The notes under the pieces were generated by a model. It was not told the origin of the DNA. It saw only the letters and a program-made list of their open reading frames with translations, and did not search any database. A program made the translations under genes and the position numbers. A DNA stretch of 64,000 nt from assembly GCA_039029395.1 (NCBI GenBank), contig JBCCGG010000018.1, forward strand, positions 27,773-91,772, given 5' to 3'. This DNA comes from Pseudomonadota bacterium. GTDB lineage: Bacteria > Pseudomonadota > Alphaproteobacteria > Kiloniellales > JAKSDN01. Below, piece after piece: positions 1 through 16,022 of this stretch (its first letter is position 1; each line of letters starts with the position of its first letter).

Positions 1-494
1 GATGGATGTACATGGGCGCAATCAATGCTGCGAGGGAGAGCGTGCGTGTGATGACGCCCTACTTTGTGCCGGACCGCGAGCTCGTGGCCAGCCTGAGCGC
101 CGCCGCAATGCGCGGCGTGAGCGTGAAAATCGTCCTACCAGAGAAGAGCAACATTCCCTTCGTGAGATGGGCGACCGACGCGATGCTCTGGCAGGTTCTC
201 GAACACGGCGTGCAGGTTTACCGTCAACCCCCGCCGTTCACGCATTCCAAGCTCTTCGTTGTTGATGATTGCTATGCGATCGTGGGATCGGGCAACTTCG
301 ACGCTAGGAGCTTGCGCCTCAACTTCGAGTTCAACCTGGAAGTATACGGCGAGGATTTCGTTTCCGTGCTTTCGCAGCATGTCGACCAAGCCAAGGCCCG
401 CTCAGCCCTGGTCACGCTTTCTGAAATGGACGGGCGCCCTTTGGCCATCAAGCTTCGTGACGGCTTCGCGCGTTTGTTTGCGCCCTACTTGTAG
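1..494 (+). CDS. cls: cardiolipin synthase / phospholipase D family protein, C-terminal part (5' end lies outside the window)
   Basis: ORF 6..494 is open to the window edge. It carries the second-PLD-domain HKD motif HSKLFVVDD...GSGNFDARS. Confidence 0.8.
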   Translation, partial: WMYMGAINAARESVRVMTPYFVPDRELVASLSAAAMRGVSVKIVLPEKSNIPFVRWATDAMLWQVLEHGVQVYRQPPPFTHSKLFVVDDCYAIVGSGNFDARSLRLNFEFNLEVYGEDFVSVLSQHVDQAKARSALVTLSEMDGRPLAIKLRDGFARLFAPYL

Positions 495-851
495 TACTGC
501 ATCTCGGCTTGGGCCCGACGGCGAGTTTCGGTAGCTGCAGTGGTCGACCGGACAGTACAGAGCACCGCTAGGCTGCAAAGCTGTTCCATGCGCCGCCAAG
601 TAACAAGTTGCGATCGATCTGAGGGGGAGGGTGCGACCTAGTCATCGTCTCGTTCCAGCGAGGCGGTGGCTCGGCCTTTTGCCTGTGGCAGTAGGTCGGC
701 GGCACGATCGATTTTGGAGAGTTCAGGCTTCCCAAATAGGAATTGCCATCAATGCCCGATATCCGCTACCGGACAACTAAGGTCAGCACTCAGTAGTACC
801 AAAGCCGTCGAATGACAGTATTGAGCCCCTTCAATGAATCTACTCCCCCGA

Positions 852-1004
852 AGGTCCGGATAGGGTCAGAAATGCCCTTCCAGAAAGTGCCGCCGAACAG
901 TCCGCTCCATGGATGGAAGCAGACAGAAGATGCGCGCGTTGCGGTCAGCCGAGACGGCGCCGCCCTTCATCTCCTCGAAGATCTGGAACAGGCTGTCGAC
1001 GGCG
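852..1004 (+). repeat. island repeat family, copy A (long form)
   Basis: Starts AGGTCCGGATAGGGTCAGAAATG. It contains the 28-mer CCGAACAGTCCGCTCCATGGATGGAAGC at 893-920. It aligns without gaps to copy D over about 143 nt. Confidence 0.85.
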
Positions 1005-1628
1005 CGCGCCTGAACCTCCGGGCGCGGCTCGATGTTAGTCATGGGGGGTCGAGGGTAGCCCCGATCGCGAGGGCGGTCACGCCGGGGGGCTAGTTGGTTT
1101 CCGGAGCTTTGGCCCCTGTGTCCGAGGCACGATCGAAAGCGGACTTACCAGCGATGATCGCGAAGCGACGGCCTGGTGAGGGGGCGATAGGGGAACACTG
1201 CCTCGAAAATCATAGTGAGGCTTGGGGTCACCTTGACTCCTTTGTTTCGATCTTTCACTGTCTCAATGTTGGCAATCTGAGTGGGGGCGCTTTGTAGAGA
1301 TTTCTCGGTGCTTTAGTTCTTTTGTTGATGTTGATTCTCCCTGAGTATGGGTTCGGCACCGACGGGCCGCTAGGGGGAATCAGATACAGTGAATCTTGCT
1401 CTTCTTGCCTCGGGCCAGCCGGAAAAGGCGTTGCCAGTTATCCAACGATTTCTGGCAAGGAAGAGTGATACACGGCGGCCTAGTTGAAAGCCTGCAGAGA
1501 AGGTATTTGGCAAGGCACAAACTCATCTCTGATGATTGTGATAGCGAAGCCATGGAGAGATGAGAAAATCGAGAATTCGGCCGGGTGTTTGGATGATACT
1601 GAACACGCGGTTCAATCGGGAGGAAAAC

Positions 1629-2951
1629 ATGAAGATAGTATCAAGTAGCGTCTTTTCGGGAGTCATGGCTGGTGCCTTGGTTCTCGGAGTGCCGTTTGCC
1701 GCTCAGGCGGATCAAAACCAGGGCATGGACGTGCCCAAGATTTCATCTTCCGTCGTCCTGGAAGGACTCGAGAGTCCTTGGGACATGGCTTTCTTGCCAG
1801 ACGGCACAATGTTCTTCACCGAGAAATGCAAAGGTCTTTCGGTAAGAACGAAGGATGGAACCGTGCACCCATTGTACGGAATGAAGGACACCACGGGCTT
1901 CGCCGATAGCGGCAATGACCTTTTTTGCGAAGGACAAGCCGGAATGCTTGGGGTGGTCCCAGATCGACACTTCGCAAAAAACCGCACCCTTTATGTCTAC
2001 TCGACTTCGGACAAGTATCACGGCGATGGCTGCAAGACCAATTTTGAAAAATGCGACGGCAACATCGTCATGAGGTTTAAGGTCAGCGATGACCTCAAGA
2101 GCGTCTCTGATCGGACCGACATCGTGGCGGACATTCAGTATAAGCCGTTCGATTCCAATCAGCCTTTCGGTGGTCCTGGCGCCCACAACGGTGGTCGGAT
2201 TCGCATTGGGCCCGGCGGCTACCTCTGGGTCGCCGGCGGTGACCGCCACCGAGGGGTCTGTCCTCAGGATGGACAGCTACTGTGCGGCAAAGTTCTGCGG
2301 ATCGACATGGACGGGAATGCGCACCCGGACAACAACCCCCCCGAAGGCTTTGACAAGCGCATTTACACTTACGGCCACAGAAATGTCCAAGGCATCGATT
2401 TCCGCCCAAGCGACGGCAAGGCGTTCACGGCTGAACATGGCCCGTGGCACAACGATGAGATCACCGCTCTTGTGAATGGTGGTAATGCCGGTTGGGACCC
2501 CGCGGAAAAAACTGGGGGTAGAGGTGAATGCCCGGATCAGTACTGCGGCTACGAGCCCAATCAAATGGACGCTATGGACCCGGCGCTACGGGCTGCCTAT
2601 ACCCCGATGAGCGACACGCGCTTCGACGATTTGATGCCACCATCATGGAACAACAATGGTTTTTCGCAAGGAACCGGTTCTGCCGCTTTCCTGAAAGGCA
2701 GCAATTGGGGCATCTACGAGGGCCGCTTGGCGGTCGGCATCATGGGTATCGCTTTTGGTGACACACCAGAGGGCTCACGCATCGACATGATCAGCTTGAC
2801 CCCCGATGGTTTGGGGATCAATGGAATCACGCGCATGCCCCTTGGGTTTTCGAAGCGATTCCGTGGCATGGTCATGGGGCCGGATAATGCGCTTTACGTT
2901 GCTGTGGATGACGGCGAGATCTACAGAATCACAGCGGAAAGTATGAAGTAA
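1629..2951 (+). CDS. PQQ-dependent sugar (glucose/sorbosone) dehydrogenase, exported beta-propeller
   Basis: ORF 1560..2951. The ATG at 1629 follows GGGAGGAAAAC. The signal peptide is MKIVSSSVFSGVMAGALVLGVPFAAQA. Family-typical segments include LESPWDMAFLPDG, HNGGRIRIGPGGYLWV and YTYGHRNVQGIDF. Confidence 0.8.
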   Translation: MKIVSSSVFSGVMAGALVLGVPFAAQADQNQGMDVPKISSSVVLEGLESPWDMAFLPDGTMFFTEKCKGLSVRTKDGTVHPLYGMKDTTGFADSGNDLFCEGQAGMLGVVPDRHFAKNRTLYVYSTSDKYHGDGCKTNFEKCDGNIVMRFKVSDDLKSVSDRTDIVADIQYKPFDSNQPFGGPGAHNGGRIRIGPGGYLWVAGGDRHRGVCPQDGQLLCGKVLRIDMDGNAHPDNNPPEGFDKRIYTYGHRNVQGIDFRPSDGKAFTAEHGPWHNDEITALVNGGNAGWDPAEKTGGRGECPDQYCGYEPNQMDAMDPALRAAYTPMSDTRFDDLMPPSWNNNGFSQGTGSAAFLKGSNWGIYEGRLAVGIMGIAFGDTPEGSRIDMISLTPDGLGINGITRMPLGFSKRFRGMVMGPDNALYVAVDDGEIYRITAESMK

Positions 2952-2964
2952 TCCACTCGAACAA

Positions 2965-3007
2965 AGTGCCCGCGGTACTGAGGTAACGCGGGCACTTTTA
3001 CTTTTTC
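2965..3007. terminator. rho-independent terminator between convergent genes
   Basis: A 9-bp perfect stem GTGCCCGCG/CGCGGGCAC with a 12-nt loop is followed by TTTTACTTTTT. It lies between the stops at 2951 (+) and 3056 (-). Confidence 0.75.
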
Positions 3008-3055
3008 CGACGGTCAAAGGTCGTGGTTGAAAGATCTCGGCGATCAAACGCTCGT

Positions 3056-3463
3056 TCAATCGCACAATACTTCAGTCAGGCGTTCGGTTGCGGAACCCAC
3101 CACGATTTGGCGCTTCGGCTTTTCCGATGTATCCGTCCCCATTGCAGGCTTTTTCCAGTGTTTATCTGTGAAAAATGTGCTCTGCAGTGTTTTCTCTGTC
3201 CGCTCGGAGCAGTCGATTTCCAACAGGCTGAGATAGCTGGACGCACCCATGACGGATGTTTTGTATCGGATGCCACTCCAAACTCGACGTAACCTATCGA
3301 TCTTTTCCACGCGTGACGTATCATAAAGATAGACGTCGCCATTCAATGGTTCGGCGTAAATGACCCATTCGCCTTCCCCAGCACCAGCAGCCGAAGCTTC
3401 GCTCGTTGTGACGGTCGATGCCGCTGAACAGATCAAAAATACGGCTAGCATAGTTTTGTTCAT
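3056..3463 (-). CDS. small exported protein of unknown function (tentatively surface-adhesin protein E-like)
   Basis: 135-aa ORF with signal peptide MNKTMLAVFLICSAASTVTTSEASA. The coding sequence is low-GC. The family guess rests only on overall pattern (W.IY....VYLYD.S...). Confidence 0.6.
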   Translation of the reverse strand: MNKTMLAVFLICSAASTVTTSEASAAGAGEGEWVIYAEPLNGDVYLYDTSRVEKIDRLRRVWSGIRYKTSVMGASSYLSLLEIDCSERTEKTLQSTFFTDKHWKKPAMGTDTSEKPKRQIVVGSATERLTEVLCD

Positions 3464-3660
3464 CAGGAATCGACTTCGATAATCATTGCTGTCTGGCCGC
3501 CAAAACTGTTGCTTTTCAGCGACCGGGTCTCAAGTAATGCCTGCCTAGTCTTGAACACTTGATCTAAGTCTTGAGTAAAAGCTGGCACGAGGGACTGCTC
3601 TTGTAAAGCCCCCATGCGATCAACCAGGCGGGCGTCTGTTGTGATCGAGCGCAACCAGCA

Positions 3661-3730
3661 AGGTCCGCTTCGAGTCAGAAATGGCCTTAGAGAATGTGTC
3701 TCCGAACAGTCCGCTCCATGGATGGAAGCC
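3661..3730 (+). repeat. island repeat family, copy B (short form)
   Basis: AGGTCCGCTTCGAGTCAGAAATGG... with the identical 28-mer at 3702-3729. Confidence 0.85.
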
Positions 3731-3744
3731 GTCCATCGCGTAAC

Positions 3745-4086
3745 TTAGTTCCACGGCGTCCCGGAGATGACAACGGCCCCGATGAAAACGCCGTATAGCG
3801 CAGCTGGAACGGCCAGCATCGCGAGGACGACATTGGCAAGTACCAGCTTGGTCGCTCTGCGCGCTGCCAACCCACCGGCGATGATTGCGGCAACCGCGAA
3901 CAAAATGCCGATCCATAACTGCATGTTGAAGCTCGAAATCGACCCATCTGCGAGCCCGACTACGAAGAAGTAGACGACGGCAAGCGCTGCTATGGAGTCG
4001 ATTCCCAACAGAATTCTAAATATCCCATCGGCTCTTCCCTTGTCCGATTTCTTGGCTATGTTTCCCGCCATCGGCACCAACCTCAT
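3745..4086 (-). CDS. small integral membrane protein, unknown function
   Basis: 113-aa ORF starting at ATG. It has three or four hydrophobic helices (IAALAVVYFFVVGL, ILFAVAAIIAGGLAA, VLANVVLAMLAVPAALYGVFIGAVVI). Confidence 0.55.
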   Translation of the reverse strand: MRLVPMAGNIAKKSDKGRADGIFRILLGIDSIAALAVVYFFVVGLADGSISSFNMQLWIGILFAVAAIIAGGLAARRATKLVLANVVLAMLAVPAALYGVFIGAVVISGTPWN

Positions 4087-4304
4087 TCAAGCTCGGCAAG
4101 CGCGTCGTCGTGACCGCTTCTGTGTCGATCGCCATTCTCCAAATGAAATGCGATCAGACCGCAGATTGCGCGGCTTTGGCTTTGTTGACATTGCTCTCTT
4201 GCCCAGAATCCGCCCAAGAAACCCCTACCATGAGCCAAAGGCGTCGCGAAAGGGCTAATGGATCGGTTATGCAGCCCCTATTCAGGGCCATCGCCACTGG
4301 TTGT

Positions 4305-4410
4305 AGGTCCGTAAGCGGGTCAGAAATGGCTCTCCAGAAAGTGGCGCCGAACAGTCCGCTCCATGGATGGAAGCGGACAGGCGAAGGGCACGTTGCGGTC
4401 GACCGAGACG
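4305..4410 (+). repeat. island repeat family, copy C
   Basis: AGGTCCGTAAGCGGGTCAGAAATGG... with the identical 28-mer at 4347-4374. I count 5 mismatches to copy A over the 64-nt core. Confidence 0.85.
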
Positions 4411-4659
4411 AACCCTAACCAAAATCTACCTTCGGATCCCATGTCGTGGTGCCGTGCTGGTCTCGCTCATTGGATGCCGGCGAGGGCGATGAGCCAGGGC
4501 GCTATGTCGCAGGACCAAAAAATCCTATTCGAACATTGTGACGTCGGATAGGGTTGAGGAACGACTCAGCACCGGTTTCTTCCGGTCGATGTCTGATGGA
4601 AGGGTGGCAATCCTAGAGTCGTCTCCGGCGCTTGAGATGACAGGAATGGGAGGCGTGCG

Positions 4660-6166
4660 GTGTTGGGTCGAAACTGGCTACTGGTGTTCGCGGCCGTCAT
4701 TTTTCTGGTGGCATCAGACCTTGGTGCGGTCCTGGCGAGCGGCACCCTGAAGATTGGCCGCAACGAAGACAGTTCGACCTTGGACCCCATCAAGACCGCA
4801 CAATCCGTCAATGTTATGATCAACGAGAATGTTCACGCCACGTTGGTTCGCTTCGTCCGGAATGCAAAGGAGATTGAGGGCGAACTGGCGGAAAGTTGGG
4901 CGTGTCGGACGACAAATTGACCTTCACCTTTCAGCTTCGGGACGCCAAGTTTTCCGATGGCTCGCCTGTCACGGCCGAAGATGCGGCTTTTCCCTGACCC
5001 GGCTGCGCGACGACGAGGAGTCAGCGCACCGTTCGAACTTCGAGAACGTGGAAGAGATTGCGGCCATTGGCGAGAAACCCCTACAGGTTCGTCTGAAAGA
5101 AACCTCGTCGCCATTCCTGTCCAAACTCACCAATATCGATGCCGCAATCCTTCCAAAGACCGCGGTGGAGTCCCTGGGCGACGAATTCGGCGCCTCGCCC
5201 GTGGGCGCGAGCAACTACAAGTTGGCCGATTGGCGCCGCGGCGAGCTTCTGGCCCCTGAACCCAACGAGCACCACTATGACGCGCCCGTTTCCCAGGTGG
5301 ACCGGGTTGAATGGTTGGTCGTACCCAACGACGAAACGCGCGCATTGAAGGTCATGGCCGGAGAGTTGGATGCCGCTGTCACGATCCCCTATACCCTATT
5401 GCCGTATCTGAGCATCCTGACCGATATAGAAGTCCATCTCATCCCTTCGACCCGCCAAGAGCATCTGTTGCTCAATCATGAGAACGAATGGCTTGCCAAG
5501 AAACCGATCCGCCAAGCCATCAACATGGCGCTCAACCGAGAGGCCATCACCCAGTTGGCGACCGCCGGGCAAGGCACGATGGCGAACTCTCTGATCCCGC
5601 CCAGCGTGCTCTACCACAACCCGGACAACCCGTCATGTACCTACGATCGAGAGATGGCCAAGTCCATCATCGAGAAATAAGGCGCGACCGGGGCGCGCAT
5701 TGATTACCTTGTGCCAGCCGGTCATGTCACCCGTGGCAACATTGCCGAGATGGTGCAATTCATGCTGGGCCAGGTCGGATTGGAGGTCGTGATCAGGGAG
5801 ATCGATCCGAGCGAGTACTGGGGCGCCCTGATCGAGGGCAACTATGACATGGCAGCAGTCTACTGGATCTCCAATCTGGACCCCGATCAAAAACTTACCT
5901 TCAGCGTCGGGGCGGATAACAATCTCAGTTACTTCACCCGCTACAACAATCCCGAAGTGACGGCAATAGTGGAACAGGTCCGCAACGAGTTGGACAGCGA
6001 CAAGCGGCGCGGACTTTACTACCAGATACAGTCCATGGTGAAGGATGACGCCCACTGGGTCGACCTCTACTATAGCCCCTTCAGCCACCTTACGCGGACC
6101 AATGTGTCGGGCTTCCACCAAAGTGCGACGGGCGAGATTCGCTTGCACGACATAAGCTTGAACTAG
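4660..6166 (+). pseudogene. ABC transporter substrate-binding protein, family 5 (peptide/nickel type), disrupted
   Basis: One protein is spread over three frames. Frame 1 runs from 4660. Frame 3 runs from about 4902 (VSDDKLTFTFQLRDAKFSDGSPVTAEDAAF). Frame 2 runs from about 4990 (SLTRLRDDEE...). There is also an in-frame TAA at 5678-5680, after which the same frame resumes (5711..6166). Confidence 0.8.
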
Positions 6167-6240
6167 GCTTGCCCTTTCGCGATCTGTGTCGCGTCAACCC
6201 TTCTGGTGTGTGAAGAAGGTGTCTTAGGACACGATCCGCT

Positions 6241-6400
6241 GGATCCGTGCCCGCCTCGGGTCAGAAATCGCCTTCCAGAAGGTTGCGCCGTACGGTCCGC
6301 ACCTTGGACGGAAGCAGACAGACGATGCGCGCGCTGCGGTCGACCGAGACGGCGCCGCCCACCATCTCCTCGAGGATCTGAAGCAGGCTGTCGGAGGCGG
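6241..6400 (+). repeat. island repeat family, copy D (long form)
   Basis: GGGTCAGAAATCGCCTTCCAGAAGG... is colinear with copy A with no gaps. A degenerate partial copy starting at CGGATAGG (6398) follows directly. Confidence 0.85.
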
Positions 6401-6538
6401 ATAGGATTACAATGCCTAAGCCTGAGTGTCCGAAGCGAGGTCAGATGCGGTCGGACGAGCGTCGATCGCGACGCGGCAACTCATAGCACCGAGCCGCCAC
6501 TTTGTTTCCTTGTACAAGGTACGAAACATCAACTCGGT

Positions 6539-7465
6539 TCAGCGCTCGGTACAACGATGAACCTCGACTGTGGCATGTACGACACCTAATTGACCTGGGA
6601 TCTGAGATTTGTAGTACTCAGGAGTGCCGGGATTGTCACTGACGATGGCAATCTCAGCGGCGAGTATTCCGTGGCCAATGCTCCAAAGGTGAAGGTCGGT
6701 GATTTTGTCCGACGAGTCGCCCTCGATTGCCTGCCGTAACTCGATTGCCATGTGATCGCTCGCTTGCTTGTCCAAAAGTACCCGCGATGAATCTTTAATC
6801 AGGCCAAAAGACCACCGCGCGACCAAAGCAGCGCCGACGAAACCCATCGCAGGGTCGAGCCAGTTAGCAGCAAAAAACTTACCCGCTAGAAGAGCAGCGA
6901 TGGCCAAGATTGAGGTCAACGCATCGGCCAAGACATGAAGATAAGCCGCACGCAGATTGTGATCGTGACGGTGTTGATCGTGTGAACGTCCCTGCCCGTG
7001 CTCGTGGGGGGTTGACATGAGAACCCAAGCACTTGCTCCGTTTACGATGAGCCCGATCACGGCCACTATCAGCGCTTGATCGAAGGCAATCGGCAATGGA
7101 TTCATCAATCGGTTGGTACTCTCCGTGACCATCAGAAGAGCAAAGCCCAGCAACAAGACTGCGCTTGCGAATCCCGCTAGGCTGTTGATCTTGCCGACAC
7201 CAAATGAATAGCTTCGATCAGTCGCGGAGCGACGCGACATCACGTACGCGAACACAGCGATGCCAAGCGCAAGTGTGTGAGACGCCATGTGCAGCCCATC
7301 TGCCAACAGCGCCATGGAACCAAAGAGCACGCCGGTGATGATCTCAGTTACCATCATGATCGCTGTGAGTGCTACAACGAACAGTGTTCGCATCTCGCCA
7401 GCACGCTGCTGGTCTTGACCGAACACGTGGCTGTGTTGCCAGTCTTCCAATCGGGTTGTGTGCAT
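6539..7465 (-). CDS. cation diffusion facilitator family metal exporter (CzcD/ZitB-like)
   Basis: ORF 6539..7525; the likely ATG is at 7465 (MHTTRLE...). It has six TM helices, the motif LLADGLHMASH, a His-rich loop HEHGQGRSHDQHRHDHN, and HVLADALTS. Confidence 0.85.
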   Translation of the reverse strand: MHTTRLEDWQHSHVFGQDQQRAGEMRTLFVVALTAIMMVTEIITGVLFGSMALLADGLHMASHTLALGIAVFAYVMSRRSATDRSYSFGVGKINSLAGFASAVLLLGFALLMVTESTNRLMNPLPIAFDQALIVAVIGLIVNGASAWVLMSTPHEHGQGRSHDQHRHDHNLRAAYLHVLADALTSILAIAALLAGKFFAANWLDPAMGFVGAALVARWSFGLIKDSSRVLLDKQASDHMAIELRQAIEGDSSDKITDLHLWSIGHGILAAEIAIVSDNPGTPEYYKSQIPGQLGVVHATVEVHRCTER

Positions 7466-7516
7466 TCGGAGCCTCTTGACGCGCGAAACTGGTGATAAGA
7501 AGCGGATTGGCCGCAA

Positions 7517-7600
7517 TGTCCACAAAGGCTCAGAAATGGCCTTCTAGAAGGTGACGCCGCACAGTCTGCACCACGGGCCGAAGCAGACAGACGACGGGCA
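7517..7600 (+). repeat. island repeat family, copy E
   Basis: GGCTCAGAAATGGCCTTCTAGAAGGTGACGCCGCACAGTCTGCACCACGGGCCGAAGCAGACAGACGA is colinear with copies A and D. It lies just 5' of the CDF gene. Confidence 0.75.
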
Positions 7601-7752
7601 GCAAAGATAGCACCTATCCGTCAGGCGATCCACGGCAGGCGCCCGTCACGCTGCACTCATTCCTATCCGGTCAAGTTCGACCAAAAGCCGAATCGCATAC
7701 TAGAGACATCGCTATTGGTAGCTAGCCTAGTGACTCACCGGTCGGGGATCCC

Positions 7753-8667
7753 TCACTCACAGGCCTCCGGCATGTCGGCCAGCATTTTGCCCTTTTCGAC
7801 GATCTTGACGCCGTCGAGTTCGAAGTTCTTCCCGGACTGCACCGCCGCCTTGATGTAGCCGCAGGTGACCGCCGCCTGGATCGGGTTGGCCATGTTTCGG
7901 TTCAGCACTGCTTGCGCAGTCTCCGACCCGCTCCCCTGGCTCGATTCGACGACGGCTGCGCTTTGGTCCTTTCCAAACTGGCTGATCTTCATGAGGACGC
8001 TCCGTTCTATCGGATTGTGACGATAGGCGAGCATGAGCCGCTGGATCGTGGGATCGGCGTTGTCGAACATGCAGCGCGCGGTGTTGGACGATCCCGCGGT
8101 CAAATATGGCTTCCTGCAGTCATGATAGGGCTCGCCGAAACGCTCGATCCAGCCCGCAGCCATCGCGGCCGGCATGGGTAACTTGGCAAAAACCTCTTCG
8201 CGTTCCTCTAAAAAGGTCACGTAAATCGAATGGATTGGCAGATTTCTGGCGCAGTTTTGAATCTCCGAACCATCGTGGGGCGAGATCAGACTGACGTTTA
8301 CGGTGACGCTTACCTTCTTGGAATTGTGGGAGGTCCAGCTGCAGTCGTCTTGGCGCATCCCCATCTCGTTCATTTTCGCTTCCAGCACCGAGAACGGTGT
8401 CCCGACCGCCGCGCCGAAGGGCTTAAGTGTGTCGATTTCGGTCAGCGGTGGAATGGAGGAATCCTGGGTGTCCTGGTCCGCGCCCGGTGCCGAATAGCCG
8501 AATTGCTGACAAATCTGTGCGATCTCGGTTTGGCAGCAGACCCGCTCGCCCTGCGCTTGCGGCGCGGCGCAATTCGGCGTCTTCAAATCGGACTGCGCGC
8601 GCGCCGGCGTCAACAGCCAGAACCCCGCCAATAGCAGAACAACTCCGACCCTCATGAAAATTCTCAT
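7753..8667 (-). CDS. exported protein of unknown function
   Basis: 304-aa ORF. The ATG at 8667 is preceded by GGGGAGAA. The signal peptide is MRIFMRVGVVLLLAGFWLLTPARA. It is Cys-rich and I recognise no motif. Confidence 0.6.
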   Translation of the reverse strand: MRIFMRVGVVLLLAGFWLLTPARAQSDLKTPNCAAPQAQGERVCCQTEIAQICQQFGYSAPGADQDTQDSSIPPLTEIDTLKPFGAAVGTPFSVLEAKMNEMGMRQDDCSWTSHNSKKVSVTVNVSLISPHDGSEIQNCARNLPIHSIYVTFLEEREEVFAKLPMPAAMAAGWIERFGEPYHDCRKPYLTAGSSNTARCMFDNADPTIQRLMLAYRHNPIERSVLMKISQFGKDQSAAVVESSQGSGSETAQAVLNRNMANPIQAAVTCGYIKAAVQSGKNFELDGVKIVEKGKMLADMPEACE

Positions 8668-8845
8668 GCCGAGTTTCTCCCCGTGGTCTGGAGGCGCCTG
8701 AGGAAGATATCATTATTGTGAAATAGAGTCTCGCGGATAGGAATTACGAGCCGCCGCAGATGGCAGCAATCCGCTCCCGTTGCCGCTCGACCGTCGGCGA
8801 GACGGACGTCTAACAAGGCCGCATTGTGGCCGCAATTGGCCCTAA

Positions 8846-8906
8846 AGGTCTCTCCTTCGGAATGTGAGACCGACGCGTTGCACCATGTACGGGGCAGACG
8901 GACGAT
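8846..8906 (+). repeat. island repeat family, copy F (degenerate)
   Basis: AGGTCTCTCCTTCGGAATGTGAGACCGACGCGTTGCACCATGTACGGGGCAGACGGACGATGG aligns to copy E with indels. Confidence 0.55.
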
Positions 8907-9476
8907 GGCCCCCTGTGGCTTTACTCACATTCTTTGAGCCAGGTCGTTGGATAAAGTATCGGGGCGAGCGACCGGGATTCGTTCGATTTTCTAGCGAATG
9001 CCGCGCGACGACAGTTTGCTTTTATGATCGGCCCAAGGACCGGAGAGGGACCGCTCGGAGAAAAGACGGCGTAGGACCGAGGCATGCTCCAATGACTCTG
9101 CAATTTTGCCACGCAATAGGACGATGAAACTGCGGCGCTTCTTCTCGCGGTGCGATGCGCGAACCTCCTCTCGCTGCGCCTTCGCGGTCGTTTCGGATAG
9201 GATTTCCGGGACGACGGCCGCCCAGCCGAGAGGACTCCACGCCCCGAGGGACGGCGGTTCTAGGGAAGTTTTCGATCGAGACCGAGGATCACGATTGGTC
9301 GACATATTTGGTATCTCCGAGATGTTTGGCACTCGAGGAATAGGAAATTCAACGGACGCCTATGAGAATTTGTCTAAAGTGCTCGAGCAGCGCGGATGAG
9401 GTGAGCTTAGGGCGGCACCGTGAAACACCGGTGGTTTCAACCGTGAAAGTATCGTTAAATCGGAGGCTCCTTCGAC

Positions 9477-11657
9477 GTGATGTACGAACAGATGGACGGC
9501 CTTGTGAGCGAAAAACCACCAGCAGCCATCCTGGAGATCTCGCTGTTTGGAGGGATTCTCCTGCGTCATGGCGCCGAACGGGTGATCGAGCTCAAGAGCC
9601 ACAAGGATCGCGCATTAGTGGGGTTCCTCGCCGTTTCCCCCGGCGTACCCTGTTCGCGCGACAAGCTTGCATCCCTGCTGTGGGGCGACAGCGGCAACAA
9701 GCAGGCCCGCGATAGCTTGAAGCAAGCGCTCATGCGCCTGCGCCGCGCGCTGGGTGCGGTAAGCCCTATGCCGCTGATCACGAACCGCCAGTCGGTGACA
9801 CTCGATCGCGATGCCGTGACGGTCGACGTTGGCACCTTTGAGCAGCTTTTGAGCGATGAGTCCTTTGAATCCAGCCGGCGCGCCACCGAGCTTTATCGCG
9901 GCGACCTGCTGGACGGGATCCAGGTGCGCGATTCGGCGTTCGAGGACTGGCTGCTGGTCGAGCGACAGCGGCTGCGCGACCTGGATGTCGAGGCATCCGC
10001 AAGAGTGATGGCGCAGGCGCTGACAATGGGTCGCCGCGATTGCGCCGCCCTCGCCGCGCGTCGCCTTCTATCGAATGATCCTTTGCACGAAACCGCCTGC
10101 AGAACCCTGATGCAGCTCCACGCCGACCGCGGCGAAGGGACCCAAGCCTTGAAGCTGTTCGAGTCTTTGAGGGACAGATTGAGGCGGGAGCTTTCGGTGG
10201 CGCCGGAGCCCGACACCATCGCGTTGTACGACGCCATTCGCAAACAACGCACCGGCAGTCTTTCCCGGGAGGCCCCATCCACAAACCATGGCGGCGTCGA
10301 GGAGTTGCCCTTGGCGCGGGTCGAACCGGAAAAGCCTTCGATCGCCGTGCTGCCATTCGTCAACATGAGTGACGACGCCGAGCAGGAGTACTTTGCCGAC
10401 GGTCTCTCGGAAGACATAACCACCGATCTCTCCAAGGTTTCCGGTCTTTTCGTCGCGGCGCGGAACAGCGTCTTTACCTTCAAGGGTATGGCCGTTCAGG
10501 TGCAGCAGGTGGCCCGCGAGCTGAATGTCAGCTACGTGCTCAAGGGAAGCGTCCGCAAGGCCGCCGACCGCGTCCGGATCACGGCGCAGTTGGTCGATGG
10601 CACGACCGGCGACCATCTCTGGGCCAACCGCTATGACCGCCGTCTCAGCGACATCTTCGCGCTGCAAGACGAAATCGCCGAGCGCATCGTCGACGTGCTC
10701 AAGGTGAAGCTTCTGCCCGAGGAGCTGAAGTATATCGGCAGCCATTCGACGATCAACGTCGATGCCTATCAATACTATTTGAGGGGCCGCGCCTTTTATC
10801 TGCGTGGCATCGATAAGCACAGCCTGCGCATTGCGCGCGAGATGTTCGTCAAGGCAACCGAGATCGATCCAAGCTATGCGCTCGCCTACGCCTCTATGGC
10901 GATTTGCGAGTCCTATCTTTCCATGAGCGCCTCGATGAAGGACTCCAACGCGAGCTTCGAAAGCTGTTTGGCCAATAGCTTGCGGGCATTGGATCTTGAC
11001 CCGAACTTGGCCGAGGCCTATGCGGGCAAAGGCTTGGCGCTCTATGCCGCCGGTCGCTACGCCGATGCCGCCGCCGAGTTCAAGCAGGCGATCGATCTGG
11101 GACCGCACCTTTTTGAAGCCCATTTCTTCTACGCCCGCAACTGCCGCCTTCAAGGTTTTCGGGAGCAAGCGGCAGCGCTTTTTGAGCGCTCTTCTTCCTT
11201 GCGGCCCAATGACTTTCGGTCGCTCGGCCTCTATTCCGAGGAGTGCCAGGCGCTCGGCCGGCACGACGACTTCATGGCCGCCGCACGGCGTTGCTTGGCG
11301 CGTATCGAAGCGGAGATCGAGACACACCCGGACAACGCGGGCGCTCTTGCCTTCGGCAGCGCCGTTTTGGTCGACCTGGGGCAGCGCGAAAAAGCGGAGG
11401 ATTGGGCCGAACGCGCCCTGATGATCGGCCCGGACGATAGCCTGGTTCACTACAATGTCGCCCGAACCTATAGCTTACTCGGAGCGCTTGATCGGGCGCT
11501 CGGCCATCTGGAGCAATCCTACTGCTGTTCTCCGCTGTTTCAGCGCCGCTTGGCGATGTGGATGAGATATGACGAGGATCTGGACGAACTGCGGGCTCAG
11601 CCCAGGTTCCGCTCGCTGGTTGAGCGCCTAAGGGTCGAGCTCGTCATCGAGTGGTGA
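9477..11657 (+). CDS. BTAD-domain transcriptional regulator with TolB-like central domain and C-terminal TPR repeats
   Basis: 726-aa ORF with GTG at 9477 or ATG at 9480, after GGAGG. The N-terminal winged-helix/BTAD segment reads RDKLASLLWGD...YRGDLLDG...LMQLHADRGEGTQALKLFESLRDRLRRELSVAPEP. The central segment reads PSIAVLPFVNMSDDAEQEYFADGLSEDITTDL. The C-terminus has TPR-like repeats. Confidence 0.8.
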   Translation: MMYEQMDGLVSEKPPAAILEISLFGGILLRHGAERVIELKSHKDRALVGFLAVSPGVPCSRDKLASLLWGDSGNKQARDSLKQALMRLRRALGAVSPMPLITNRQSVTLDRDAVTVDVGTFEQLLSDESFESSRRATELYRGDLLDGIQVRDSAFEDWLLVERQRLRDLDVEASARVMAQALTMGRRDCAALAARRLLSNDPLHETACRTLMQLHADRGEGTQALKLFESLRDRLRRELSVAPEPDTIALYDAIRKQRTGSLSREAPSTNHGGVEELPLARVEPEKPSIAVLPFVNMSDDAEQEYFADGLSEDITTDLSKVSGLFVAARNSVFTFKGMAVQVQQVARELNVSYVLKGSVRKAADRVRITAQLVDGTTGDHLWANRYDRRLSDIFALQDEIAERIVDVLKVKLLPEELKYIGSHSTINVDAYQYYLRGRAFYLRGIDKHSLRIAREMFVKATEIDPSYALAYASMAICESYLSMSASMKDSNASFESCLANSLRALDLDPNLAEAYAGKGLALYAAGRYADAAAEFKQAIDLGPHLFEAHFFYARNCRLQGFREQAAALFERSSSLRPNDFRSLGLYSEECQALGRHDDFMAAARRCLARIEAEIETHPDNAGALAFGSAVLVDLGQREKAEDWAERALMIGPDDSLVHYNVARTYSLLGALDRALGHLEQSYCCSPLFQRRLAMWMRYDEDLDELRAQPRFRSLVERLRVELVIEW

Positions 11658-11716
11658 CGAAGAGGGCATCTCCATAGGCACATGTTCCTCAGCGGCGGTG
11701 CGCGGGACGGCGACGA

Positions 11717-11840
11717 TCCTATCCGACAGCTAGAGCCGAACTCGATCCTTCACGGCTTTGTGAGGCGGGAGAAAAAGGGTGGATCGAAGGACCGACCGGA
11801 TAGACGATGGTCGCAGCGTCGCCGGCGAAGCGGCGCAGGC
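11717..11840 (+). repeat. island repeat family, copy G (most degenerate, rightmost)
   Basis: ...GAGCCGAACTCGATCCTTCACGGCTTTGTGAGGCGGGAG...AGACGATGG... aligns weakly to the A/D core. It is preceded by the reverse complement of CGGATAGG at 11717-11724. Confidence 0.4.
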
Positions 11841-11845
11841 GTACG

Positions 11846-12469
11846 TTACGGCTGCTGCTTCATCTCCGTGTTGATCCGCACCGTTATCTTGTCGGTCGGT
11901 CCGGAGGGAAAAGCGCCGACGCCGAACTCCAGGTGATTGATATCCGTCTCGGCGGCAAAGGCGATCCAGTTGCCCTTGTAGTGGTCGATGTATTGGCCGA
12001 CCGGGTGTTCGCCTCTGTGGGTTAGGGTGACGTGCAATGTGGTTGGCTTGGTGACACCATGAATGGTGAGGTTACCCGTTACATCGGCGGTCGTGTCGCC
12101 GGTTCGCTTCACGCTGGTGCTTTCGAAGGTCGCTGTCGGGTACTTCTCCACGTCGAAAAAATCGCTGCTTTTCAGATGCTTGTCCAGCGCCGGAACCCCG
12201 GTGAAGAGACTGTCCGTGTCGATGGTGACGTTGATCGTAGAGTTTTCGACGTCATCCGGATCGAGCACAAGCGTGCCGTCGGCCTTCCCGAACTCGCCGT
12301 GCTGCATCGAAACACCGGCGTGGCTCCAGGCGAAACCGATCTCGGTGTGCCCCTGATCGAACTTGTAGGTGTCGGCGGCCTGCACACTTCCGGCCAGGAC
12401 CGAAGTCATGAAAAAGGCGAATGCCCCAAGAACGTATTGCGATTTCGGTCGGTGGTTGTGAAGCGTCAC
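11846..12469 (-). CDS. YceI family periplasmic polyisoprenoid-binding protein
   Basis: 207-aa ORF with a signal peptide. YceI-type pattern: YKFDQGHTEIGFAWSH...GEFGKADGTLVLD...LTIHGVTKP. Confidence 0.8.
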   Translation of the reverse strand: MTLHNHRPKSQYVLGAFAFFMTSVLAGSVQAADTYKFDQGHTEIGFAWSHAGVSMQHGEFGKADGTLVLDPDDVENSTINVTIDTDSLFTGVPALDKHLKSSDFFDVEKYPTATFESTSVKRTGDTTADVTGNLTIHGVTKPTTLHVTLTHRGEHPVGQYIDHYKGNWIAFAAETDINHLEFGVGAFPSGPTDKITVRINTEMKQQP

Positions 12470-12609
12470 GAGGTCTCTCCCACTTCAGTTGGAATCACGC
12501 GTTCCCCACGGCGATCACGCCGGATGAACCGTGCTCGGAATCTACTGAGGCGCCAAGCATCGAGCTTGACAAATATTGCTATCTTCGCTGCGCTCGCCCC
12601 GCGGAGCGC

Positions 12610-13518
12610 ATGACGATGGCGATGGCCGGGCAACGACATCGAATGAACCGTGCGATGAACTATGCACGCGCCAATGTCGGGGAGGATTTGGACCTTCATC
12701 GATTGGCGGACATCGCCTGTTTGTCCAAGTACCACTTCCTGCGTGCGTTCCGGGACCACTTTCACGAAACGCCGATCCAGTTTTTGCAACGCATTCGCCT
12801 CGAACATGCCGCCAGCCAGCTCGTCTACTATCCGGAAGCGCGGATCACGGATGTCGCCTTGGACAGCGGGTTCCGGTCAACGGAGTATTTTTCCCGCGCC
12901 TTTCGGTCCCGATTCGGCGTCGCGCCCCGGTCCTTCAAGGCTTCCAACAGATGGTGCTTCGACACCTTCAGGCGGGCCAACCCGCTCAAGCATGAGGTCT
13001 ACATTCCGCCCGCCCGCCTGCGCCAATCGGATATCAAGACCTTTAGGGTCCGCACCGAATACCGGCCGGCGCAGCGCATCGCCTACATCCGACACCTGGG
13101 GCCCTTCGGCGACGTTGGCGACAGCATCACCAGGACGTTCGACGCGCTTCAACGTTGGGCCCGGCAGCGCGGACTTCCGCTGCGCGATGCGTCCTACATC
13201 GGCGTTTGCTCCGGCAACGTCAACATCACGCCGGCGCACCTTTGTTTGTACGATGCCGGCCTCTTTGTGCGGGACGATATCGGGGAAGACGAAACCGTCA
13301 GCGTTCGCGTCATTCCGGAGGGTTGGTACGCGACACTCCACGTGCAATGCCCACCCGAGGCGCTGAACAGCAGATGGCAATGGCTGACCGCGACATGGTT
13401 GCCCGCTAGCGGTTGGAGAATGGCCTTCCGCCCCTGCTATGAACTGTTCCGCTTGGAGGAGGGCCAAAGAGTCCGATCCGAGTTCGGGGCGCGGCTATGC
13501 CTGGCGGTCACCAGATAG
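12610..13518 (+). CDS. AraC family transcriptional regulator with GyrI-like effector-binding domain
   Basis: ORF 12421..13518; the likely ATG is at 12610. The AraC HTH reads LADIACLSKYHFLRAFRDHFHETPIQFLQRIRLEHA...GFRSTEYFSRAFRSRFGVAPRSF. The C-terminal half is GyrI-like. It is divergent from yceI. Confidence 0.8.
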   Translation: MTMAMAGQRHRMNRAMNYARANVGEDLDLHRLADIACLSKYHFLRAFRDHFHETPIQFLQRIRLEHAASQLVYYPEARITDVALDSGFRSTEYFSRAFRSRFGVAPRSFKASNRWCFDTFRRANPLKHEVYIPPARLRQSDIKTFRVRTEYRPAQRIAYIRHLGPFGDVGDSITRTFDALQRWARQRGLPLRDASYIGVCSGNVNITPAHLCLYDAGLFVRDDIGEDETVSVRVIPEGWYATLHVQCPPEALNSRWQWLTATWLPASGWRMAFRPCYELFRLEEGQRVRSEFGARLCLAVTR

Positions 13519-13533
13519 GTGGCGCAACCCGCT

Positions 13534-15225
13534 TCACGTCGGCTCCTCGGCGTTTTGCGCCGGAGCCTCCACGACCAAAGGCAGGCGCACGGTGAAGGTC
13601 GAGCCGACTCCTGGCTCGCTGGTCAGATCGATCTCGCCGCCCATCATCTGGCAAAGCCGCCGGCTGATCGTTAGGCCCAGACCCGTGCCGCCGTATTGCC
13701 TGACTTGCGTGCCTTCTGCCTGAGTGAAGGCCTCGAAGACTTTCTCGCACTGCTCTGGGGTCATGCCGATTCCGGTATCGGACACCATGAGATGGAGCCA
13801 ATCGGCACCGCCGATCCGGCTGCGCCCGGCTTCCAGGGTGACCTCGCCGCCTTCGGTGAACTTGCAAGCGTTGCTCAGCAGATTGAGGACGACCTGGCGC
13901 ACCCTGGTCTTGTCGGCATACATGAGACCCAGATCCTCCGCGCAGCGGATCTCCAGTCGGTTGCCGTTGCGCTTGGCCAGGGGCTGCACGGCGGCCGCGG
14001 TCTCCTCCAACAAGGCGGCGGTGTCGTAGCTCTCGAGAAAAAGGTCGTACTTTCCGGCCTCGATTTTGGAGAGATCCAGCAGCTGGTTGATGAGCTCGAG
14101 GAGGTGCTCGGAGCTGATCAGGATCTTCTCCAGGTTCTCGTACTGCTTGTCCGAGATGGCGGGTTTGGTTTGGCGCATGACCAAGCGGGTGAAGCCGACG
14201 ATGGCGTTCATCGGCGTGCGCAACTCGTGGCTCATGTTGGCCAGGAAGTGGCTCTTGGCCTCGGTCGCGCCGAGCGCTTCTTCCCGGGCCTCGACCAGCC
14301 GCTCCTGCGCCTGCACCCGCTCGAACACCCGGCCGAGCTGGCGGCAGATCTGGGTCATGGCCTGCAGCAGGGGATCGGTGAGCTGGCCCGGCTCGCCGGA
14401 GAAGAACTCGAGCACCGCGACAACCCGGTCGCCGGCCTGGACGGGAAAAGCATAGGCGCCCCTGACGCCGGCCCCGGCCGCCAGCGCGCCCTTGGGGAAG
14501 CCCGGGTCCTGCGAGACATCGTCGATCCAAGCCGCCCGTCCGCTGGCCAGGACACGCCCGAGCAAGCCGGACTCGGCGGCCGACGGGGCGCCTTCGATGG
14601 CCTCCCGCAGGGCCTCGAAGCCTTGGCTGTCGTCCAGATGCCAAATGCCGCTGGGCACCAGCTGGCGGGCCGTTTCGTTGAGCTGGTAGACATGCCCGGC
14701 CGGCCAGCGGGTGTGGGCGCAGACCCGGTCGAGCGCGATGCGCATGGCCTCCTCGGCGCTGGTGGCCTCGTTGGCGGCGCGGGTGATGACCTCGATCAGC
14801 AGCAGGCGCTCGGCCCGGTCCTTCTCGCGCTCGATCTCGCGGGTGTTGCGCTCGACCATGGCCGAGTAGGACTCGATCATCGATTCCAGCTCGCGCATGC
14901 GGGTGATGTTCTGGCACTCGGCCACCAGCAGCGCCTCATCGTTTGAGGTCGCGCGGCTGAGCGCCAGGGCGATCACCAGCGTGCGCCGCTTGGGTTTGAT
15001 CGACAGCTCCACCGAGTGCGAGCGGCCGGCGGCCAGATCGGCCCGCATGGCTTCCAGGTCGACGCCGGGAAAGACCGTGGCCAGGGTGGAGTCGGGCGCG
15101 GGAACGCCGAACCAGCTGGAGAACTTCTCGTTGCTGAAGCGAAATCTCAGGTCCTCTTCACCGAGAATCGCGATGCCGACCCCGATGGCGCGGAGCAGTT
15201 GCTCGTTGATCGCCGCGATGTTCAT
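13534..15225 (-). CDS. PAS-GAF sensor histidine kinase (no receiver domain)
   Basis: 563-aa ORF. The H-box is FLANMSHELRTPMNAIVGF. The HATPase G-boxes are VSDTGIGM and GGTGLGLTISR. The central GAF-like region reads WPAGHVY...AAWIDDV...AYAFPV. Confidence 0.9.
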   Translation of the reverse strand: MNIAAINEQLLRAIGVGIAILGEEDLRFRFSNEKFSSWFGVPAPDSTLATVFPGVDLEAMRADLAAGRSHSVELSIKPKRRTLVIALALSRATSNDEALLVAECQNITRMRELESMIESYSAMVERNTREIEREKDRAERLLLIEVITRAANEATSAEEAMRIALDRVCAHTRWPAGHVYQLNETARQLVPSGIWHLDDSQGFEALREAIEGAPSAAESGLLGRVLASGRAAWIDDVSQDPGFPKGALAAGAGVRGAYAFPVQAGDRVVAVLEFFSGEPGQLTDPLLQAMTQICRQLGRVFERVQAQERLVEAREEALGATEAKSHFLANMSHELRTPMNAIVGFTRLVMRQTKPAISDKQYENLEKILISSEHLLELINQLLDLSKIEAGKYDLFLESYDTAALLEETAAAVQPLAKRNGNRLEIRCAEDLGLMYADKTRVRQVVLNLLSNACKFTEGGEVTLEAGRSRIGGADWLHLMVSDTGIGMTPEQCEKVFEAFTQAEGTQVRQYGGTGLGLTISRRLCQMMGGEIDLTSEPGVGSTFTVRLPLVVEAPAQNAEEPT

Positions 15226-15590
15226 CCGGCGTCTCGGTCCACGATACAGCTTCGGCGCGCTTCGATCTCGCTCAGCACCGCGTTCCGGTCCGCGGCCTCG
15301 AAGCCGAATTCGTCGAGCGTCTCGGCAAGCAGCTCGATCATCTCGTCCATGTCCGGGTCGGAAATGCCAAGCGGCGCGTGAATCACCTTGAGGTGCTCGT
15401 TCGAGTAGGAGGCCGGGCCGCCGAGCAGCGACGACATGAACTTGGTCTGATGGTCCACGACCTTCTTCAGGTCGATGTCCTCGAAGTAATCGCCGATCTG
15501 ATCGGAATCCATCACCTTGTCGTAGAACGACAAGACGACCCGGCTGACCACGGCGAATCCGCCGTATTTCTGAAAAAGCGAGTCCGACAT
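15222..15590 (-). CDS. group I truncated haemoglobin (2/2 globin)
   Basis: ATG at 15590 (MSDSLFQKYGG...), 122 aa. trHb hallmarks are present: the FQKYGG glycine motif, SFYDKV (B9-B10), QTKFMSSLLGGP (E7 Gln plus the GG motif) and VIHAPLGI (proximal His). Its stop overlaps the kinase start as ATGA. Confidence 0.8.
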   Translation of the reverse strand: MSDSLFQKYGGFAVVSRVVLSFYDKVMDSDQIGDYFEDIDLKKVVDHQTKFMSSLLGGPASYSNEHLKVIHAPLGISDPDMDEMIELLAETLDEFGFEAADRNAVLSEIEARRSCIVDRDAG

Positions 15591-16022
15591 CCTAGTCCGT
15601 CCGCGGCGGCAAGCTATTGCACTGTCATAGGACCTAATCTGCAAGTCCAGTCGAGACGGCCATGAGGCGATTTCCTCCGCCCGACCCTTCGCGTCTGGCT
15701 TCTATCACGCTTGCCCGCCGATGTCGGCAGCTAATGCCACAAGCCTCCATTGTCCCCCTCCGGTCGGCCACTACTTGGTCCGGCCCTCCAACCAAGGCAA
15801 GTCTAGCGTCGTCGCGGAGTCGAGTCTATCTCCGCCCAGAGGCTTGCCGGGCGCAACGGCTTCCATAGCCCCGGCCCTTGATACAACTGAAACACAAAAG
15901 CCGCGCCACGGAAGTCAAGCTGAAACAGTGCCTTCCTAGGTCAATGGGCAACCAACACCAGGCCGGTCCAAGACGGGACCGGCGACCGGTACCCTTTGAC
16001 ACCCCGAACGGGAGGGCAAGCT

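Follow-up and report, generated by a model that had tools for sequence, protein, structure and literature searches.

Genes and repeats downstream of cls

We analysed a 64,000-nt stretch of DNA from a Rhodospirillales/Kiloniellales-like alphaproteobacterium (contig JBCCGG010000018.1 of assembly GCA_039029395.1; hereafter the window), in which small, unrelated genes downstream of cls, the cardiolipin synthase gene, are separated by copies of one directly repeated element (Table 1). The intervals between the copies, here called modules, measure 0.6–2.8 kb, carry one or two genes in mixed orientation and have no mutual similarity beyond the junction itself. A first-pass annotation of the same DNA, made from its letters alone, had assigned functionally unrelated accessory genes to these intervals. 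Domain searches, which took in 50 of the 56 called open reading frames (ORFs; up to 58.8 kb), confirmed the list: GSDH, Adhesin_E-like, membrane-protein, SBP_bac_5, Cation_efflux, orphan and BTAD/TPR genes. The stretch had also been described as less GC-rich than the remainder, and this holds, at 0.545–0.59 over the first 10 kb versus 0.62–0.73 elsewhere in the window. GC content at third codon positions (GC3) is 0.54–0.77 for the cargo and 0.83–0.94 for core genes; the cargo values vary between modules, which suggests separate origins. One cargo gene, the solute-binding gene of module 3, has decayed, with PF00496 profile positions 42–274 and 301–362 falling in separate ORFs. It is uncertain whether the BTAD/TPR regulator on the right is a member of the array; the two best among its non-self homologues share 73% and 70% identity with it and stand in unrelated contexts. 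YceI and AraC+GyrI genes follow, and the rest of the window is ordinary chromosome (clpB, prfA, hemA, hisS, aspartokinase, rodZ).

Table 1 Features of the repeat array and its flanks (window coordinates; L081 and L086–L092 are related loci described in the text)
Feature	Coordinates	Strand	Remarks
cls, 3′ part	6–494	+	cardiolipin synthase / PLD family; PLDc_2, E = 3.7e-31; conserved left flank
Native DNA downstream of cls	495–671		still common to L081
Segment E0	672–868		window-specific; no ORF; ends in 17-nt terminus AAGGTCCGGATAGGGTCA
c1	851–1042	−	longest copy (851–1007 as robust repeat); terminus, b segment, palindromic core, activator codons 40 to 1
28-nt block CCGAACAGTCCGCTCCATGGATGGAAGC	893–920 (c1), 3702–3729 (c2), 4347–4374 (c3)		identical in c1–c3
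Module 1	1163–3676		ends ...AAGGTCCGCTTCGAGTCA; 85–89% nt identity to L086–L092
PQQ/GSDH sugar dehydrogenase (module 1; PQQ, pyrroloquinoline quinone)	1629–2951	+	
Adhesin_E-like exported protein (module 1)	3056–3463	−	
c2	3660–3731		shortest copy; terminus, b segment, core
Module 2 cargo, 113-aa membrane protein	3745–4086	−	no Pfam match
c3	4305–4470		type II right part; profile t2, E = 2e-40
Module 3 cargo, decayed SBP_bac_5 solute-binding gene	4660–6166	+	at least 2 frames
c4	6246–6405; 6165–6405 with 80-nt left extension	−	activator codons ~12–90
Module 4 cargo, cation diffusion facilitator (CDF; Cation_efflux) metal exporter	6539–7525	−	PF01545, E = 6e-38
c5	7515–7605		terminus, b segment, core, ~20 nt of gene fragment; in-frame stops
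Module 5 cargo, 304-aa exported orphan protein	7753–8667	−	no Pfam match
c6	8826–8918 (bounds 8826/8837 to 8908/8918)		single decayed copy; Smith–Waterman versus c4, c5
BTAD/TPR (SARP-like) regulator, after c6	9477–11657	+	P0122; BTAD and TPR families
Supposed seventh copy	11717–11840		no detectable family member
Motif CGGATAGG(AWT), often CGGATAGGAWT	857+, 4545+, 6398+ (6398–6409), 7613−, 7662−, 8734+, 9194+, 11718−		exact sites

Self-comparison and a profile scan of the window, both suggested by the first-pass annotation, confirmed a direct-repeat family, which is the dominant one and has no inverted partner; no second repeat family was found. Five copies (c1–c5) are robust. Their 85-nt stretches (at 851, 3660, 4305, 6246 and 7515) show 75–80% identity to c1, which itself matches c4 at 84% over 149 nt, and an exact 28-mer is present in three copies where none is expected by chance. 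A nhmmer profile built from three copies recovered all five on the + strand (E = 1e-50 to 9e-17; 850–1007, 6243–6403, 4301–4461, 7514–7599 and 3658–3731), in line with the common orientation reported earlier. The sixth copy, c6, aligned with c4 (z = 3.7, p = 0.003) and c5 (z = 4.15, p = 0.001) when scored against the whole 809-nt gap; it has lost about 17 nt around the TCA|GAAATG junction and has about 10 extra nt on its left in common with c5. All six copies are intergenic and lie in one orientation, one in every gap, over a span of 8 kb. The first-pass annotation had counted seven. Five of these are robust and the one at 8846–8906 persists as the decayed c6, but the one at 11717–11840 behaves like control intergenic gaps (p = 0.18–0.57) and was missed by both profiles.

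In the sequences searched, the family is local. Nothing else in the 64 kb scored better than E = 0.008 with nhmmer, which upholds the earlier statement that the other 52 kb (about 45 gaps) hold no copy. Approximately 1.8 Mb of other loci contained none except in the closest relatives of module 1, degenerate exact-pattern scans of 596 Gb of genomes plus a metagenome collection gave 0 matches, and plasmid and phage collections gave no match at the DNA level or by tblastn.

The repeat is a composite junction

The repeat consists of three parts: a 17-nt terminus, AAGGTCCG-N8-GGGTCA; a segment of about 57 nt that includes the palindromic core CAGTCCGCTCC-ATGGAT-GGAAGCrGACAG; and, on the minus strand, a piece of variable length from the first ~40 codons of a gene for a sigma54-dependent PAS activator. 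The left end is sharp, with c1, c2 and c3 starting at the identical nucleotide despite unrelated left flanks. The right ends are nested, at ~72 nt (c2), 88 nt (c5), 115–165 nt (c3), 157 nt (c4) and at least 190 nt (c1). In c2 the homology stops 6 nt right of the core spacer, abutting the stop codon of the next gene, and the right edge of c4 falls at a copy of the motif CGGATAGG (6398). The junction point reads GGGTCA|GAAATG and, on the minus strand, lies between the last sense codon and a TGA. The same TGA and the same fragment/core boundary recur in all copies, which points to descent from one ancestral junction.

The inverted repeat of the core is also the architecture of a 28-nt block that is identical in c1, c2 and c3. 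Within the block lies a short palindrome, TCCATGGA, about 50 nt from the mapped breakpoint GGGTCA|. The 42 nt adjoining the block differ by 24–38% among these three copies (Fisher p = 0.0045, 0.0045 and 0.0001), and in c4 and c5, unlike c1–c3, the differences are evenly spread along the length. The identity could reflect constraint on a candidate protein-binding site, or it could be a gene-conversion tract. No codon phase is seen in the substitutions that separate the copies (9/8/5, 9/8/7 and 8/7/6), and c2 and c5 carry in-frame stops.

Folding tests set the element apart from attC sites. When either strand of c1, c3 and c4 was folded as single-stranded DNA, z was −1.0 to +2.0 relative to shuffles, and no attC-like hairpin was seen. 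Consensus folding of both strands gave weak energies, the alifold covariation term being a penalty, and a permissive Rfam scan of positions 1–14000 returned two chance-level matches only, both elsewhere. One small hairpin is retained, GTCYGC-N13-GCRGAC, with a single compensatory pair. The attC boxes R″ (RYYYAAC) and R′ (GTTRRRY) are not conserved in the copies: the candidate AAC (GCCGAAC) is TAC in c4 and CAC in c5, and both c2 and c5 lack the candidate GTT. The Rfam scan, folding and shuffles thus all speak against a structured RNA or attC-like hairpin. These data bear on the idea of an integron array that has lost its integrase, that is, a cluster of attC sites lacking integron-integrase (CALIN) with unusual attC sites. 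Such an array would have direct repeats bounding one- or two-gene cargo of 0.6–2.8 kb and no local integrase, as found here. We nevertheless consider this reading scarcely credible, because conserved R″/R′ boxes (RYYYAAC...GTTRRRY) and an imperfect hairpin spanning the element are missing, folding yields no more energy than in shuffles, the genes point in both directions and a gene fragment forms part of the repeat.

Other identities for the repeat were rejected. A short imperfect palindrome of the repetitive extragenic palindrome (REP) type fails on the single small hairpin and on a fold no better than shuffles. A miniature inverted-repeat transposable element (MITE) would have terminal inverted repeats, which are absent, and the copies are nested truncations. 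An IS26-like or ISCR-like array does not fit, as the coding part matches the N terminus of a sigma54 activator, not a transposase. GInt elements were judged not applicable as an analogue.

A sigma54-activator gene fragment in the repeat

The minus strand of c1 forms a 58-codon ORF (ORF58, 866–1042) without a Shine–Dalgarno sequence. Its GC3 is 0.90–0.95 over 926–1045, dropping exactly at the ATG, and only 0.55 over its last 20 codons, the part common to all copies. ORF58 matched no Pfam or NCBIfam family and had no relative in 5.8 billion clusters. An exhaustive phmmer search found P0243, a 487-aa activator with PAS, Sigma54_activat and HTH_8 domains, whose residues 13–50 match ORF58 residues 3–40 at 61% identity (E = 1.3e-4 library-wide). 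In tblastn within the window, P0243 residues 7–51 aligned with 1054–920 at 53% identity (E = 2e-9), and the activator match rests on 38–45 residues. A second fragment lies in c4 and its left extension, where P0243 residues 24–90 align to 6398–6165.

DNA homology of c1 and c4 with the P0243 gene halts at codon 50, which is the fragment/core boundary, and ends at the most conserved motif, DRNARIV. Only in c4 does the frame run on through the shared TGA into the 80 nt left of the repeat. The peptide encoded there resembles P0243 residues 60–90 in the PAS domain (z = 4.8, p = 0.0005), a resemblance that stays at chance level beside the remaining copies; this extension has no GC3 signature (0.53).

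Further readings of the coding part were rejected. The b segment plus core gave no support as PAS coding sequence (p = 0.27–0.96). A small paralogous protein gene, for which the GC3 pattern of ORF58 is convincing, is contradicted by the lack of relatives, family and codon phase, the first 40 codons alone being homologous. An origin from the 3′ end of a gene conflicts with the P0243 match, which shows a 5′ end. The match to P0242 (1035 aa, 15 stretches) proved to be a tandem-repeat artefact.

Module 1 occurs in other genomes with the same right end

The PQQ dehydrogenase of module 1 has many close relatives in marine metagenomes, with up to 92% amino acid identity, and the Adhesin_E-like gene follows it as a convergent pair in about 50 of 80 loci (L086–L165). 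Loci L086–L092 are 93–94% identical to each other at the nucleotide level, and their homology to the window is confined to ~1163/1199 to 3633/3676 (2687–5325 in L089). The flanks differ between contigs and have ordinary chromosomal functions, and no recombinase is encoded in them. In all, module 1 was found in at least four other chromosomal contexts, each from marine metagenomes. Its GC3 is 0.54–0.64 in the window and in every relative (0.54–0.62 in the relatives' contigs), and that of the relatives' flanks 0.75–0.89; the PQQ/Adhesin_E pair being well below its flanks in the closest relatives, it is a horizontally mobile two-gene module with a wide distribution in marine metagenomes. Taken as a unit, module 1 is thus discrete, portable and compositionally foreign. 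The earlier view that the repeats divide the stretch into units of unrelated cargo is borne out, the cargo being compositionally foreign, and the boundary of module 1 lies inside the repeat.

At the right junction, the window, L089 (JAAUYJ010013502) and L090 (JAAUYF010012310) are homologous through AAGTCYGCTTCGRRTCA, the first 17 nt of c2, and then part at one base, GGRTCA| (GGGTCA| in the window). Identity between L089 and L090 is 0.86–0.94 before this breakpoint and at background level after it. This common divergence 17 nt into c2 indicates that the start of each repeat belongs to the module on its left. The repeat start given in the first-pass annotation, AGGTCCG..GGGTCAGAAATG, is right as quoted, but its first 17 nt are the end of the left module. 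Module 1 thus has the same ends elsewhere, with the 17-nt terminus kept in L089 and L090, as in a tandem array.

Beyond the breakpoint, L090 carries a diverged, collinear homologue of c3 (score 47, z = 5.4, 0 of 2000 shuffles), the c3 linker being homologous to the segment that adjoins module 1 there. A family member therefore accompanies module 1 in another genome, at the same module end. A profile of c3 and L090 run over 165 loci matched only the window, L090 and, weakly and in part, L091/L092 (right part, E = 0.005). The downstream flank of L089 was also considered as a family member and was not significant. At the left junction, module 1 starts GG|AACAyTGCCT; the letters before this start are GGCGATAGGGG in the window and GGCGATTCAGG in both L089 and L086. 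As a separate observation, the L090 junction element (2202–2345) has a strong single-strand fold (z = −3.3), in which the breakpoint is enclosed by a perfect stem of 10 bp, CTGCTTCGGA/TCCGAAGCAG; this pairing is lost in the window copies.

A 144-nt segment of L090 (2155–2298), lying between CAGGACC repeats, has no counterpart in L091 (2245–2252) or L092 (6155–6162). It was considered as a MITE with a 7-bp target-site duplication and rejected, because the homology to c3 spans its edge; that crossing means that the junction element of L091 and L092 has undergone a microhomology deletion. L090 and L091 then have another 33 nt in common before they part again (..GCCGGTC| versus ..GCCGATC|). The segment had been one attraction of a dispersed repeat, of the REP, bacterial interspersed mosaic element (BIME) or Rhizobium-specific intergenic mosaic element (RIME) type, or a MITE, that is dense here by chance; the copies are, moreover, intergenic, short (70–160 nt) and moderately diverged. 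We regard this explanation as very unlikely. The 144-nt indel is a deletion rather than an insertion, the element is partly a coding-gene fragment without terminal inverted repeats or an unusual fold (z −1 to +2), no copy occurs in the ~45 gaps of the other 52 kb, and the exact-pattern scans of genome and metagenome collections were empty.

The sequence downstream of cls differs between relatives

Two relatives were found via cls, whose product has 87–90% amino acid identity to P0002/P0003 of close relatives: L081, from the Kiloniellales metagenome-assembled genome (MAG) GCA_022361275.1, and L080, on ERZ23487392 scaffold_2541. L081 264–933 matches window 2–671 at 86.7% nucleotide identity (blastn) and then diverges. 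In L080 (88.6% nucleotide identity), homology is lost at the cls stop codon (492), beyond which lie unrelated genes that are absent from the window. As the two breaks differ, the window, L080 and L081 have three different sequences downstream of cls, which is the outcome of the orthologous-locus comparison at cls proposed in the first-pass annotation. In the nearest genome, a Rhodospirillales MAG (73% amino acid identity), only a histidine kinase and globin pair is syntenic.

Just right of the equivalent of window position 671, where its synteny with the window breaks off, L081 has a perfect inverted pair, CGGGTCAGA-N10-TCTGACCCG (944–971). The 9-mer of this pair is the c3/c4 junction motif; only five occurrences were counted in 1.84 Mb of loci, and the pair itself accounts for two. 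The association was noticed post hoc. The palindrome might mark an unoccupied attachment site, or simply be the terminator of cls.

Origin of the array

We favour, tentatively and with a confidence somewhat below an even chance, a reading in which the region from ~0.67 to 9 kb grew stepwise at a single spot downstream of cls, as small non-autonomous cassettes were added in tandem and left the repeats as presumed junction scars between modules. In its favour stand the clustering of six like-oriented copies, the left boundary common to c1–c3 and the nested right ends, the portability of module 1 and the breakpoint that it shares with L089 and L090, the c3-type element at that module end in L090, the 28-nt block, the different sequences downstream of cls and the GC3 differences between the cargo genes. 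In the manner of a tandem array, the direct repeats contain a fragment of a candidate target gene and have, in c1, c2 and c3, a common sharp boundary. The module family would insert at, or recombine through, one site associated with the sigma54-activator gene, each insertion regenerating or duplicating the junction much as attL/attR are in tandem integrative elements. Modules would be added singly by recombination at the fixed junction point, and later deletions would trim the gene-fragment side, giving the nested right ends. The joining might be catalysed in trans or proceed by homologous recombination; an enzyme, not being encoded in the window, would act in trans.

Several observations weigh against this reading. 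No integrase, transposase or resolvase domain, Phage_integrase included, was found among the scanned ORFs and no tRNA or tmRNA in the window; the first-pass annotation had likewise reported no tRNA, attC-type site or recombinase, as the tRNA scan, fold tests and domain searches bear out. An intact target gene is expected at one end of the array, but the full-length activator is not in the 64 kb, and tblastn of P0243 gave two 5′ fragments only; the N terminus of an intact orthologue would read MTNIEPRPEVQARAVDSLFQIFEEMKGGAVSADRNARI.... Module 1 is the only module compared across genomes. The relatives' contigs carry it singly and without flanking direct repeats, L089 and L086 have no recognisable junction element on the left, and the relatives' other breakpoints fall at other sequences (1163, 1199, CCGRTC| and the CAGGACC deletion). 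The 28-nt identity of neighbouring copies might be gene conversion. Substitutions show no coding constraint and c4–c6 are decaying, so the array may be a fossil and any such system perhaps inactive today.

Some of these points lend themselves to another model, in which the junction element is no more than repeated DNA, a regulator-gene fragment with adjoining sequence, on which RecA-dependent recombination, homologous or unequal, and gene conversion would act; modules would be gained, lost and shuffled between relatives after transformation, gene transfer agent (GTA) transfer or conjugation with no dedicated recombinase. The copies, from 72 to more than 160 nt long and 70–100% identical, are sufficient for recombination, and no recombinase is found in the window. 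The 28-nt block of identity in three neighbours resembles a conversion tract, and in c2 the switch from module-1-type to c1/c3-type sequence lies inside the most conserved stretch, GGGTCAGAAATG. The end of the activator homology at DRNARIV would be a natural homologous-recombination anchor, and the relatives show several breakpoints together with the CAGGACC microhomology deletion. What this model leaves unexplained is why at least three unrelated modules are joined at the identical nucleotide and why the window, L089 and L090 share a single-base break; in addition, 70–80% identity over less than 100 nt is a poor RecA substrate. We regard it as a serious though unlikely alternative.

The repeats might also be passive remnants, without a role in mobility, of one insertion into the activator gene whose junction was then copied by duplications and rearrangements in a decaying island, the cassette-like look being coincidental. 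The in-frame TGA and the fragment/core boundary common to all copies suit a single source, and decay is evident in the lack of codon-phase bias, the stops in c2 and c5, the deletion in c6 and the SBP pseudogene within the array; the lack of a recombinase in the window is also expected. We think this improbable. The intervals share nothing but the junction, which sets them apart from duplicated segments, module 1 is found on its own elsewhere, terminus attached, a family member stands at the same module end in another genome, and the six copies have one orientation and lie one per gap. Even so, homologous recombination via portable homologies, or one inherited ancestral junction, could explain much of the pattern.

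The accretion reading has a stronger form. The first-pass annotation had suggested a recombination site of a cassette system not yet described. The clustered repeats bounding modules agree with that suggestion, but much of the repeat has turned out to be an activator-gene fragment. In this form, which we hold to be a long shot, the junction would be the recombination site of an undescribed system that is integron-like but mechanistically unrelated to integrons. Promoter-carrying modules ending in AAGGTCCG-N8-GGGTCA would be captured successively in or beside the sigma54-activator gene by an unlinked recombinase of marine Kiloniellales-like alphaproteobacteria, and CGGGTCAGA-N10-TCTGACCCG would be an unoccupied site. 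The feature itself is real and unusual, and is best filed as tandem cassette or element accretion rather than as an integron or a dispersed repeat. Were the joining site-specific, the locus would be a platform that captures very small cassettes without recombinases, outside the integron paradigm and in a marine lineage that is abundant but poorly studied, and would offer a defined candidate site (GGGTCA|GAAATG plus the palindromic core). Even under homologous recombination, a fragment of a regulator gene would serve as 'portable homology' that lets unrelated accessory genes pile up.

Comparison with known systems

Integrative elements, and derivatives of them that lack an integrase, are known to accrete in tandem. 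Examples are the cis-mobilizable elements (CIMEs) beside integrative and conjugative elements (ICEs) at the fda locus of Streptococcus thermophilus and the composite islands of staphylococcal cassette chromosome (SCC) and pseudo-SCC elements at orfX/rlmH in staphylococci. As in those arrays, same-orientation direct repeats of a target-gene fragment lie between modules, the boundary on the crossover side is sharp and common, and some modules have no recombination genes, so that the enzyme would come in trans. Unlike them, the modules here are very small (0.6–2.8 kb) and none of six has a recombinase. Moreover, the repeated fragment comes from the 5′ rather than the 3′ end of a gene and is fused to a segment of ~75 nt, and the intact target gene is missing. 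SXT/R391 elements, ~100-kb ICEs that encode their own integrase, integrate into the 5′ end of prfC and form tandem arrays. They resemble our locus in having the site in the 5′ coding part and in leaving 5′ gene fragments beside the inserted DNA, but the cargo units here are gene-sized and have no int gene.

Integron arrays and CALINs likewise hold unrelated one- or two-gene cassettes with a same-orientation element that travels with the cassette, as for module 1 in L089/L090; the window differs from them in having no attC structure, core sites or intI, and in its mixed orientation and gene-fragment repeat. The minimal mobile elements of Neisseria are exchanged through conserved flanking genes, and the Neisseria intergenic mosaic element (NIME) repeats are dispersed genome-wide. 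The likeness lies in a fixed spot between conserved genes with different cassettes per strain, and in repeats as portable homology. The differences are that the element here is local and that minimal mobile elements are not exchanged via internal repeats.

PAISt of Streptomyces turgidiscabies is reported to integrate at the 3′ end of bacA, where it uses a palindrome of 8 bp, TTCATGAA, and to be excised in modules through an internal copy of it (PMC4057263). The likeness is a short palindrome (here TCCATGGA) in repeated junctions, several copies of which define modules; unlike PAISt, a large ICE with its own integrase, the window has its mapped breakpoint ~50 nt from the palindrome.

Other features of the window

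The motif CGGATAGG has eight exact sites, in both orientations and all in intergenic gaps of the array within 857–11725, compared with a shuffle expectation for the whole window of 1.66 on average and 5 at most. A near-match at 4524(−) forms an inverted pair at 4524–4552, and a degenerate site lies at the left junction of module 1. These associations are post hoc. The motif could act as the operator for a local regulator, or as a site accessory to recombination.

To the right of the array, the longest ORFs of the divergent YceI (−) and AraC/GyrI-like (+) genes overlap by 49 nt (12421–12469); translation of AraC probably begins further downstream. Its effector domain has a match to Cass2 ('integron-associated effector binding protein') as well, which reflects only the GyrI-like fold. 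The histidine kinase (GAF/HisKA/HATPase-like) and the adjacent bacterial-globin gene, at 13534–15644 in the window, at 9555–11686 in L001 and also in L002, make up the one block whose synteny extends to the nearest genomes (73% and 69% amino acid identity) and may be a globin-linked sensor pair. Four consecutive ORFs without a Pfam match (334, 139, 216 and 231 aa) occupy 15996–19079, where GC dips to 0.58 at 17–19 kb; this may be a second foreign patch. Finally, two paralogous GMC oxidoreductase genes (23423–25066 and 33241–34821), about 9.8 kb apart, have stretches of 79–82% identical DNA, and both adjoin transporter genes.

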